Below, piece after piece: positions 26,593 through 28,897 of a DNA stretch of 64,000 nt. Source of the stretch: Escherichia coli (lineage in GTDB: Bacteria > Pseudomonadota > Gammaproteobacteria > Enterobacterales > Enterobacteriaceae); assembly GCF_009931435.1 (NCBI RefSeq), contig NZ_CP043414.1; one strand, given 5' to 3'. Made by a program: the position numbers and the translations under genes. The notes below the pieces were generated by a model, which was given only the letters and a program-made list of their open reading frames with translations, had not been told where the DNA came from and ran no database searches. The number at the start of each line of letters is the position of its first letter. The stretch's first letter is position 1.

Positions 26593-26676
26593 TACTACTC
26601 CTGGGCGGTTTACAGGAGTAAGTGTAGACGGCGGTACTGAAAAAACGAAACGAATAAATGATAACAGTAAAAAAAT

Positions 26677-27126
26677 TCAATTATTCATAATAAATTTCAT
26701 GGTGGCAAGAAATAGTTTCTTTTCTTCATCACTCATGGCAGCAACGTTTAACATGTTGTCATCAAAATTATTGATGATATTTTTTAATTTCAGTAACTGC
26801 AAAGGAGAAAAATAGTCACTCCCGATGAGATTACTCAATACCAGCAATAGCTCCCCATCATATAAATAGCCCACCATAAGATTAATCTCTATCATCTCAA
26901 TTGCTTTTTGTACAGCAAGCGCCGGTAAGATATTCTGACGAAGCATTTTGGCAATATCATTTTCATCCAGTTCATCGGGTGTTTTATCTAATAAAGAATT
27001 ATACCAGTTTATTAAACCACTTTTGAAAGCGAACGAATCATATTGCAGGTGATAAATCTGTTTTAGGGTTTCTTTATTTTTCAATTTATAGTGCCTTTGT
27101 TTGCTATAATTTTTCTGAAATAACAT
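26677..27126 (-). CDS. hypothetical protein, 149 aa, AT-rich, predicted helical; immunity-protein-like by context
   Basis: ORF with ATG overlapping the stop of the upstream gene (TGATG); strongly AT-rich codon usage unlike flanking core genes. Confidence 0.6.
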   Translation of the reverse strand: MLFQKNYSKQRHYKLKNKETLKQIYHLQYDSFAFKSGLINWYNSLLDKTPDELDENDIAKMLRQNILPALAVQKAIEMIEINLMVGYLYDGELLLVLSNLIGSDYFSPLQLLKLKNIINNFDDNMLNVAAMSDEEKKLFLATMKFIMNN

Positions 27127-27593
27127 CAGCGAGTTTGCTCAGGTGCAGGGATGACCGAAATTGTCATGTATTTTTTCAGTCTGGCTTCTCGTTTCACACC
27201 TTTCGGATCTGAACCAAAAGGAAGCGTCAAGCATGGTGAGTCAACGGTTTGGATTGTCCAGAGAGAATCACCAATGAATCTGAAATTGATGCTATCCGCT
27301 GTAACGGATAATCCCTCAAAACTTCCCGTCGCATACTCATTACCCAAACGTACGGTCTCTTTAACTCCATCATTAACATCGATAAGGACAATTGTCAGTG
27401 ATTCCTCAAAAATAACGTCATCCGTCAGAAAAAGGATATAACGCTGGTCATTAACCTGAATTGCCGCTTCCAGTATTTGCCCTGGTACAATAATACCTGT
27501 GTTATTGCCATTGAGCACAACGTCAGACTGAGCCTGAGATAAATCAGTCGCTTTGTGAACCTTGACCAACGATATCGAATTAACCTGTTGCAT
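27126..27593 (-). CDS. hypothetical protein, 155 aa (start at MQQVNSISLVKVHKATD; the 186-aa track ORF is probably over-extended)
   Basis: ATG at 27593 two nt downstream of the stop of the glycine-zipper ORF; first 31 codons of the track ORF overlap that ORF in another frame. Confidence 0.6.
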   Translation of the reverse strand: MQQVNSISLVKVHKATDLSQAQSDVVLNGNNTGIIVPGQILEAAIQVNDQRYILFLTDDVIFEESLTIVLIDVNDGVKETVRLGNEYATGSFEGLSVTADSINFRFIGDSLWTIQTVDSPCLTLPFGSDPKGVKREARLKKYMTISVIPAPEQTR

Positions 27594-27595
27594 AA

Positions 27596-27736
27596 TCAAT
27601 TCCACAAGCGCCCCATTTCCCATGCGGCAAGTGCACCGCCGACAAAGCCGCCAATAAGTACGCAAACAGGTGCACCTGGACCACACACCAATCCTGCCAT
27701 CGCGCCGCCTGCGACAGCTCCGGCAATAATATTCAT
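27596..27736 (-). CDS. small glycine-zipper membrane peptide, 46 aa (MNIIAGAVAGGAMAGLVCGPGAPVCVLIGGFVGGALAAWEMGRLWN); candidate small toxin or C-terminal remnant of a polymorphic toxin
   Basis: translated by hand from the minus strand; repeated GxxxG/AxxxG motifs, two hydrophobic segments; weak Shine-Dalgarno; open frame continues 35 codons upstream to a TAG at 27842-27844 without a start codon. Confidence 0.4.
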   Translation of the reverse strand: MNIIAGAVAGGAMAGLVCGPGAPVCVLIGGFVGGALAAWEMGRLWN

Positions 27737-27919
27737 CCGGGTACGACTGCCAGTGGTTTTAACAGATTTGCGCTCACCGTTACGTATCCTGCCACCACTC
27801 AGGTTGCAGACGCGGCAGTCACAGCCTTGACGGTGTTGAAACTAAAGTTCAGGTGATAGTCTGATGTTCATAGTTTGAGCATTATCCCCTGACAGAATCA
27901 AATCAAGCAGTGTCAATGA

Positions 27920-28177
27920 TCACGTGTATATATCATTTAAAGCATTATCAAGCCAATCTTCCATGTTTTTAATTTTAGCCCGCGCATATAAATCATTCAT
28001 AACATCCTCATAACTCTGTCCATCATTGACCATACAATTAGCTGTATGAGGCAGAACATGTATAAAATCAGACAATATAAAACAAGCCTTTGAATTTCCA
28101 GAGTTAGCTGCAATTCTGATATCAATCAATCCTCTGGCAATCAATTTAAGAATAACATCTTGCATTTTAATTTCCAT
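27920..28177 (-). CDS. hypothetical protein, 85 aa, AT-rich
   Basis: ORF MEIKMQDVILKLIARGLIDIRIAANSGNSKACFILSDF downstream of the SUKH-like gene on the same strand. Confidence 0.45.
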   Translation of the reverse strand: MEIKMQDVILKLIARGLIDIRIAANSGNSKACFILSDFIHVLPHTANCMVNDGQSYEDVMNDLYARAKIKNMEDWLDNALNDIYT

Positions 28178-28259
28178 ATCATTCAGTTAAATTTCAGTAG
28201 TAAATCGTCTATCAAAAAAAGATGAAATTAACATTCATAAATTTATTACAATATGAAAA

Positions 28260-28613
28260 TCAAAAATATACATCATCAGCTTCTACCGAAAACTCCATGG
28301 CTCCTAAGGCACCTAAATCAATACTAAATATAGTATCACTTTCCTTAGCACTCCCAACATAGATAAAATAGCCTAAATCTCCGTCTTGACCTATCAAAAA
28401 ATAGTCAGGTTCCACTTGTTGAATATCATATGTTTCATTTCTTTCAATAAGATCAGAATAGTTATATAAATATAATGTTTCGTGCTTCTTATTAGTTATT
28501 TCATAGGTCTCACTATCTTTAATTTCTTCTATCAAAAAACGTTTATACACTGGAGGAAACTTGATTGACATGTCAAATTCAATTTTATTTATATATTCTA
28601 TAATTTTATTCAT
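28260..28613 (-). CDS. SMI1/KNR4 (SUKH)-like immunity-type protein, 117 aa
   Basis: motifs FPPVYKRFL and FLIGQDGDLGYFIYVG...IFSIDLG resemble the SUKH superfamily pattern; assignment by eye, not by search. Confidence 0.55.
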   Translation of the reverse strand: MNKIIEYINKIEFDMSIKFPPVYKRFLIEEIKDSETYEITNKKHETLYLYNYSDLIERNETYDIQQVEPDYFLIGQDGDLGYFIYVGSAKESDTIFSIDLGALGAMEFSVEADDVYF

Positions 28614-28848
28614 GTTAAGAATACCTGAAAGATTATTTATTGATTATCTTGATGAATATATCTTCACTTTTTATTTTCATTTACTCATCGCGGAAATACA
28701 CATTGCCTTGTAGACAAGCGCTAATAATACGTTATGAACCTGACTTCCGCCAGACAATCAATCAATGAATTCATTACGCCGTAGTGTTTTAGAAAGACAC
28801 TTTCTGACCAGATGGTGAACCATATACTACATCGCGCATTATAAAAAA

Positions 28849-28872
28849 ACCGCCAGCGTTTCCACTAGCGGT
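28849..28872 (-). terminator. intrinsic terminator downstream of ybfA
   Basis: imperfect hairpin accgccag-cgtttcca-ctagcggt with a U-run on the minus strand (plus-strand aaaaaaa at 28843-28849). Confidence 0.5.
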
Positions 28873-28897
28873 TTTCAATGTTTTCAAAACTCAGCAA

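Follow-up and report, generated by a model that had tools for sequence, protein, structure and literature searches.

Introduction

Several toxins that depolarize membranes carry glycine-zipper helices at their C-termini, among them TelE and EsxX (T7SS), Tse5-CT (T6SS Rhs), and the CdiA-CT ionophores. These toxins are modular, with the zipper domain found behind various delivery domains, and the immunity gene lies immediately downstream. The immunity proteins of EsxX (ExiAB) and TelE (TipE) are soluble and cytoplasmic and bind the zipper. The CDI ionophores have been modeled as five-helix bundles, and the pore-forming domain of colicins is a 10-helix bundle with a buried hydrophobic hairpin. 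Ssp6 and Ssp4 of Serratia are small helical T6SS-linked effectors that are often encoded in orphan two-gene loci, away from the T6SS clusters (PMC6889166, PMC12669606). Remnants of such systems are also known. In the orphan modules of Rhs and CDI systems, a 3' fragment of the toxin gene lies directly upstream of its own immunity gene, and antitoxin islands hold unrelated immunity families without an intact toxin gene. Immunity genes collect as orphans in such islands (the EsxX paper, PMC12744356).

We analyzed a 64-kb stretch of E. coli DNA (the window), in which an earlier note had singled out a 46-codon open reading frame (ORF) as an unannotated glycine-zipper peptide, possibly the remnant of an Rhs or CdiA toxin. 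The locus is like the orphan modules and the antitoxin islands: it holds unrelated immunity families (SUKH-1, CdiI_3, and a 155-aa protein), has no intact toxin gene, and has a toxin 3' fragment directly upstream of the fragment's own immunity gene. Unlike in the Rhs and CDI modules, the fragment (the stump) seems to derive from a small effector, either stand-alone or of PAAR type, whose gene was cut down by IS630-associated deletions, and it was not displaced from an upstream full-length Rhs or CdiA gene. Orphan immunity modules that include a toxin stump are known; the toxin family is undescribed in the databases and papers that we searched.

Like TelE, EsxX, Tse5-CT, and the CdiA-CT ionophores, the parent effector has C-terminal glycine-zipper helices, stands behind various N-terminal domains, and has its presumed immunity gene immediately downstream, but it has no detectable sequence relationship to any of them. 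Its domain of ~215 aa has nine modeled helices and a CGPGAPVC turn, compared with the five helices of the CDI ionophore models. As in the colicin domain, ~200 aa are helical and the last two helices form a hydrophobic, Gly/Ala-rich hairpin. We also considered kinship with Ssp6 and Ssp4 and set it aside on their descriptions only: their immunity proteins are in the membrane (Sip6 has two transmembrane helices and Sip4 has four, whereas the 155-aa partner has no hydrophobic segment), and Ssp4 was modeled with 13 helices and a beta-sheet.

Results

The 46-codon ORF and its annotation

The ORF (27596–27736, minus strand) translates as MNIIAGAVAGGAMAGLVCGPGAPVCVLIGGFVGGALAAWEMGRLWN and ends in a TGA stop codon at 27598–27596. 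The 46-aa peptide contains five GxxxG motifs, including those of G11-G15-G19, and five matches to the glycine-zipper pattern (G/A/S)xxxGxxx(G/A/S), namely G11-G15-G19 and four overlapping ones. It has a GRAVY score of 1.20, and the hydropathy of its 19-residue windows ranges from 1.15 to 1.73. The tandem glycine motifs were thus as the earlier note had described them, and so was the contrast in base composition: the ORF is 56.7% GC, compared with 43% for the downstream 155-aa gene and 29–32% for the flanking island genes.

The ORF had also been called unannotated. This is not so for strain 2020CK-00188, in which PGAP annotated a hypothetical protein (WP_157943798.1) on the same DNA, or for the gene calls of a public collection, in which a near-identical 46-aa protein (P0001) is recorded in 113 blocks. 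The description is thus only partly true. In eleven other genomes, PGAP instead annotated this frame as a pseudogene, “IS630 family transposase, partial”. As described earlier, there is no convincing Shine-Dalgarno sequence (anti-SD pairing of -2.1 kcal/mol, versus -10.7 for ybfA and -6.9 for ybgA), but the remaining small genes of the island are equally weak (+0.4 to -3.8 kcal/mol), so this measure does not discriminate. Similarly, the frame is open upstream for 35 codons, as far as a TAG at 27844–27842, with no ATG, GTG, or TTG in between, but on its own this is unremarkable (the chance probability of such an open stretch is ~0.135 at the local base composition).

An 810-bp module in an island of immunity genes

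The ORF lies in an island between ybfA and ybgA (the order is kdpFABC - ybfA ... ybgA - phrB - dtpD). From 26677 to 28613, this gap holds small minus-strand genes of polymorphic-toxin immunity families and no intact toxin gene. A 117-aa protein of SUKH-1 (SMI1/KNR4), which is a polymorphic-toxin immunity family, is encoded at 28260–28613 (PF09346, E = 1.6e-4), and a CdiI_3 immunity gene lies at 26677–27126 (PF18616, E = 2.7e-17); both are on the minus strand.

Comparison by blastn with locus L016 delimits a module of 810 bp (27119–27928, minus strand) that consists of IS debris, the effector stump, and the immunity gene. The commoner form of the island has 8 bp in place of the module. The module starts at a TA, and it shortens an ORF of the older island from 94 to 85 aa (27920–28177, minus strand) and changes its last residues. 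The module was found in 13 of 5,426 complete E. coli genomes (the island query matched at all in 259), and the shorter island, with SUKH-1, the 94-aa ORF, and CdiI_3, was found in about 240 further E. coli genomes. The same arrangement at the same locus occurs in further NCBI assemblies, and the 46-aa protein is named for E. fergusonii. These comparisons indicate that the module is an insertion into an older SUKH-1/CdiI_3 immunity-gene island.

The start of CdiI_3 differs between the two forms of the island. In genomes without the module, the start codon is ATG, and in the window, PGAP placed it at a TTG (27084, giving 135 aa). Also, in TGATG at 27124–27128, the stop codon of the 155-aa gene overlaps an ATG at 27126 that extends the CdiI_3 ORF to 149 aa. 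Given the change from ATG to TTG and this overlap, the insertion may have changed the translation of CdiI_3.

Homology to the end of a longer effector gene

A profile of 239 positions (A2) was made from 69 full-length relatives and compared with all six frames of the window using hmmsearch. It matched only the frame at 27841–27599, where HMM positions 196–237 align with residues 4–45 of the peptide (E = 4.4e-15); there was no second match within the 64 kb. The effector-gene remnant (27599–27728, minus strand) corresponds to the last ~42 of ~239 profile positions and encodes a helix-turn-helix glycine-zipper hairpin, whose CGPGAPVC turn (peptide residues 18–25) includes two cysteines. The match is to a fragment only: 18% of the domain is kept, and the 82% that is lost includes a third hydrophobic helix and all of the nearly invariant charged residues. 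In the DNA, homology to Enterobacter-type cassettes extends from 27728 to 27157.

The cysteines that flank the turn (C208 and C215 in the numbering of P0048) are conserved in at least 90% of the 69 sequences in A2. This pair suggests a disulfide staple that forms in the periplasm. Such a staple would suit a toxin that acts from the periplasm; it fits oddly with a cytoplasmic partner protein.

The earlier note had suggested that the open frame might be the end of an Rhs or CdiA gene. A search with the frame (81 codons) yielded only short ORFs of 46–133 aa that have CGPGAPVCV in common; they belong to E. fergusonii, Enterobacter, Pantoea, Cronobacter, and metagenomes. No Rhs or CdiA proteins were among the matches. 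The short ORFs are pieces of a longer gene, which is split in L003, L004, and Pantoea stewartii (L008). The homologies indicate that the 46-codon ORF is the last 42 codons of a gene for a glycine-zipper toxin of ~235 residues, joined in frame to four transposase codons.

The parent effector family

We searched for the family with a reconstructed effector of 220 aa. The query was matched over its whole length, by 684 cluster representatives at E ≤ 1e-3 and by 124 at E ≤ 1e-30. The family domain (~215 aa) is at the C-terminus of proteins that mostly have 229–290 aa. In the top 150 representatives and the top 120 clusters, lengths range from 91 to 531 aa, with one exception of 1360 aa. In this metagenomic protein (P0152), the usual layout is reversed, and the effector domain is N-terminal (residues 18–227). 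A match to Endonuclea_NS_2 in one of 37 longer members is probably from the same protein, which could be a gene-call fusion.

We found no specific family for the peptide, the reconstructed effector, or the parent domain in Pfam, NCBIfam, PADLOC, or PHROGs. The sole matches, to Bacteriocin_IIc (E = 0.66) and to glycine-rich parts of tail and tape-measure proteins, reflected composition, and a sequence search of the PDB gave chance matches only. Relatives from a fold search are named “uncharacterized” or “Glycine zipper family protein” in UniProt. Literature searches by motif strings and by keywords (glycine zipper, PAAR, T6SS) found no description of the family.

The N-termini give some indication of how these proteins are delivered. 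A PAAR domain (PF05488) is present in 11 of the best 120 clusters; for example, P0042 scores 143 bits against NF033420 (T6SS PAAR, cut-off 124) and matches PF05488 with E = 1.7e-17. Other N-terminal fusions, in single longer members, are to PG_binding_1, LysM, Phage_Mu_F, and DUF6861. Intact relatives include a 232-aa gene at L010 7001–7699 and the PAAR-fused form at L014 7001–8236. These varied fusions suggest the modular pattern that is typical of a polymorphic-toxin domain, and we infer that the parent protein is an interbacterial toxin that is delivered by the T6SS in the PAAR-fused members. As to linkage with PAAR, VgrG, or Hcp, PAAR occurs in some of the full-length relatives, and the stump in the window has no N-terminus; there were no T6SS genes within 7 kb of the short forms in L010 and L013.

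The parent effector is all-helical, and its domain, as modeled, ends in the glycine-zipper hairpin. Given the glycine-zipper motif and the analogy with TelE, EsxX, Tse5-CT, and the CDI ionophores, this hairpin may insert into the inner membrane of the target cell and depolarize it. Alternatively, the zipper could serve to translocate the N-terminal part across the membrane, as for Tde1 (PMC10240207).

Neither Rhs nor CdiA seems to be the parent. The core of an Rhs protein has YD repeats and ends with PxxxxDPxGL, and a CdiA-CT follows a VENN pre-toxin region. We found no VENN, DPxGL, or YD motif in any frame of 26593–28897, and no family member in the top 150 representatives or the top 120 clusters had the length of an Rhs or CdiA protein or was one.

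IS630 debris and a deletion junction

The DNA upstream of the stump matches an IS630-family element from a Pantoea dispersa plasmid (NZ_CP082343; L023), whose transposase scores 213 bits against NF033545 (cut-off 100). The left end of the element and the first ~27 transposase codons are at 27803–27930 (minus strand; 76% identity to L023 1499–1638, E = 1e-26). The transposase ATG is at 27871, and a 12-bp deletion creates the TAG at 27844–27842, leaving MNIRLSPEL*. Another piece, at 27726–27805 (minus strand; 84% identity to L023 2089–2168, E = 1e-20), comes from within the transposase (codons ~178–204, LSGGRIRNGERKSVKTTGSRTRMNII); at the protein level, 24 of 31 residues are identical (E = 2e-12). 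The ATG of the 46-codon ORF is transposase codon 200, the initial M-N-I(-I) of the peptide is transposase residues 200–203, and the SRTRMNII in the open frame is transposase sequence. From codon 4 or 5 onward, the ORF is the effector 3' end. At the junction (27724–27727, minus strand), transposase (ATCATTGGC) and effector (GGTATTGCC) share a 4-bp microhomology, ATTG.

The earlier note had suggested that the 35 open codons upstream of the ATG were residual toxin. The matches refute this and indicate that these codons are two fused fragments of the transposase reading frame and that the 46-codon ORF is a chimera from an illegitimate deletion. The ~205 bp next to the stump align with the left end of the IS630-family element and with two stretches of its transposase gene, and the left boundary is at a TA. 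Compared with an intact element, only about 17% is left, and the right end is missing. The residual element is not mobile. The ~200 bp (198 bp) upstream of the stump had no other match in the 5,426 complete E. coli genomes but matched plasmid-borne IS630-family elements.

We considered whether the IS630 label from PGAP was an artifact; the matches to plasmid IS630 elements such as L023 ruled this out. The pseudogene that PGAP annotates (window 27683–27802; L001 and L002) overruns by ~40 bp into the toxin remnant. The ORF fuses a toxin remnant to transposase sequence, so the labels “hypothetical protein” and “IS630 transposase” each describe one half of it, and for the window this settles the question of annotation.

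A conserved partner gene downstream

An intact gene for a 155-aa protein, the presumed immunity protein, follows the stump (27126–27593, minus strand; ATG at 27593–27591; TGATTATG). Its ATG is 2 nt past the stop codon of the stump (TGGAATTGATTATGCAACAGG, identical in the L004 copy). A longer ORF of 186 aa (27126–27686, minus strand), which the earlier note had raised as possibly the true gene, is an artifact: the same gene lengthened as far as an upstream GTG, so that its frame overlaps the stump. RefSeq also has the start at the ATG at 27593.

In every locus that we examined (from E. coli, Enterobacter, Pantoea, Pseudomonas yamanorum, the PAAR-fused L014, the assembly L010, and metagenomic contigs), a gene for 151–156 aa lies directly downstream of the effector gene. 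The partner in the window is 33–76% identical to the partners from nine other loci (for example, 33% to that of L003, with E = 5e-27 by BLASTP). In an alignment of seven partner sequences (A4), identities range from 29 to 72% and 24 columns are invariant. We found 583 relatives of the partner; every one is named hypothetical, and they lack Pfam domains. Homology and synteny that are conserved across distant bacteria uphold two proposals of the earlier note: that a longer toxin gene left the peptide as its C-terminal remnant and that the 155-aa gene is its partner.

The 155-aa protein is soluble and has no hydrophobic segment. Its AF2 model (pLDDT 85.6) is all-beta, with 12 strands, and is propeller-blade-like, whereas ExiAB has a GyrI-like SHS2 fold. 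Judging from the conserved gene pair, the 155-aa protein probably neutralizes the parent toxin. A soluble cytoplasmic immunity protein would be atypical for a membrane-targeting T6SS effector: the partners in this family are soluble and beta-rich, as opposed to the usual membrane immunity protein. The immunity proteins of EsxX and TelE are a precedent for a soluble partner.

Repeated decay of the effector beside an intact partner

At least five kinds of disruption of the effector gene occur across lineages, and the partner is full length wherever the contig allows. The effector has one or more frameshifts in L003, frameshifts in L004, and an in-frame stop codon in Pantoea stewartii (L008). In Enterobacter (L005), a gene for an IS3-type transposase is directly upstream of an 83-aa stump, and in the window, IS630 debris adjoins the stump. 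The hairpin frame is still open in every independently truncated copy, and the decayed copies from other genera keep the 3' end of the effector. A broken effector next to an intact partner would be the mark of selection that favors immunity even when the weapon is gone.

A relationship between the window and the 83-aa stump of Enterobacter upstream of the ATG, considered from a MAFFT alignment, was rejected: local alignment gave 15–20, versus means of 16–18 for 200 shuffles.

The ORF is intact in all nine of the E. coli and E. fergusonii copies that we compared, but these are nearly identical and too alike for an informative test of selection after the truncation. Relative to the Enterobacter copies, the hairpin codons have 16 synonymous and 2 non-synonymous differences (dS = 0.77, dN = 0.022, dN/dS ~0.03). 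The low dN could reflect continuing constraint, which is inseparable from selection before the truncations: much or all of the divergence may predate the independent truncations, so present-day constraint is not proven.

Explanations for the stump

In our view, the ORF is very probably a non-functional chimeric stump in an orphan immunity module, wreckage that is retained beside a selected immunity gene. This builds on the homologies, the breakpoints, the conserved gene pair, and the independent decay of the effector beside an intact partner, which were observed directly. An IS630-family element would have hit an effector-immunity gene pair, and later deletions would have eliminated the greater part of the IS along with about 80% of the effector gene. 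Through one of these deletions, via the 4-bp microhomology, effector position ~196 would have come to follow transposase codon ~203 in the same frame. This would have left the IS debris, the last 42 effector codons, and the intact immunity gene as the 810-bp module in the older immunity island. The host may keep the module as protection against attackers with the intact toxin. The stump may have survived because the start region of the immunity gene is in or just after its 3' end, and not because the peptide is of use. The intact ORF in all nine copies, the low dN, and the open hairpin frame in the truncated copies count against reading the stump as wreckage. [quoted passage not shown]

A second explanation, which is quite possible although we do not favor it, is that the stump acts only in cis, as the ribosome-binding region and possibly the promoter of the immunity gene, with any translation serving to couple the two. 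The 2-nt spacing between stop and start, with the same sequence in L004, fits this explanation, as does the retention of the effector 3' end in all of the decayed copies from other genera. However, a ribosome-binding site needs ~20 nt and not 126. There is a sigma-70-like CTGGCA-16-TATTAT at 27753–27726, just upstream of the hairpin codons, but it matches at 9 of 12 positions, which is no better than the background in shuffled sequences. A role in cis is also compatible with the stump being wreckage, rather than opposed to it.

It is unlikely that the stump is a working mini-toxin, a translated peptide that would insert into the inner membrane of the cell producing it and be restrained by the 155-aa protein, so that the pair stabilizes the island as a toxin-antitoxin-like addiction module. 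The intact ORFs and the dN/dS relative to Enterobacter are what this would predict, and the 2 nt that separate the stump's stop codon from the partner's ATG would allow coupled translation. But the start codon is accidental, a product of the deletion junction in the transposase debris; the Shine-Dalgarno pairing is weak (-2.1 kcal/mol); and transcription from the promoter-like match at 27753–27726 would begin only after the ATG. The number of promoter-like sites is at background (12 found versus 8.5 +/- 2.9 expected). Furthermore, the missing 82% of the domain holds the third hydrophobic helix and the nearly invariant charged residues, and the copies are too similar for a test of selection since the truncation.

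A bolder version seems less likely still. If the hairpin is translated and binds the 155-aa protein, then the two would be a new addiction pair of the toxin-antitoxin kind, made from a fragment of a secreted effector. Separately, the parent pair may be an undescribed and widespread class of T6SS-linked membrane toxin with a soluble, propeller-like neutralizer.

Finally, it is most improbable that an Rhs or CdiA toxin at the rhsC-equivalent locus lost its core and left the peptide as its 3' end (rhsC of E. coli K-12 presumably lies between ybfA and ybgA). The map position and the neighboring SUKH-1 and CdiI_3 immunity genes would fit this origin, but the family members and motifs described above do not. 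Many Rhs and CdiA genes are present in the 5,426 complete E. coli genomes, yet blastn and megablast found no other copy there, and the module is a later 810-bp insertion with an IS630 end and did not belong to the older island.

If the stump is indeed wreckage, then the module is a base-resolved example of how an orphan immunity module may arise: through an IS hit and microhomology deletions, the weapon was lost and the shield was kept. This finding is itself modest. The wider value is in the parent family, which has hundreds of clusters across Proteobacteria without a Pfam or NCBIfam model and is not intact in the window, and it is this effector/immunity family that is worth experimental follow-up.

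Variation and genomic settings of the module

Relative to strain 2017-02-2CC, there are 7 differences in 851 bp, and 6 of these are inside 32 bp of the hairpin codons (27688–27719; AMAGLV to ALTGLM). Such clustering resembles a patch of conversion or a single event that changed several bases; we found no donor. In Enterobacter, the decayed module is at the edge of integrated elements, by smpB in L005 and by integrase fragments in L006 and L007. These elements carry defense genes (DarT/DarG-type, Cap4 nuclease, and McrBC). In Pantoea (L008 and L009), the module adjoins SIR2 and AbiE genes.
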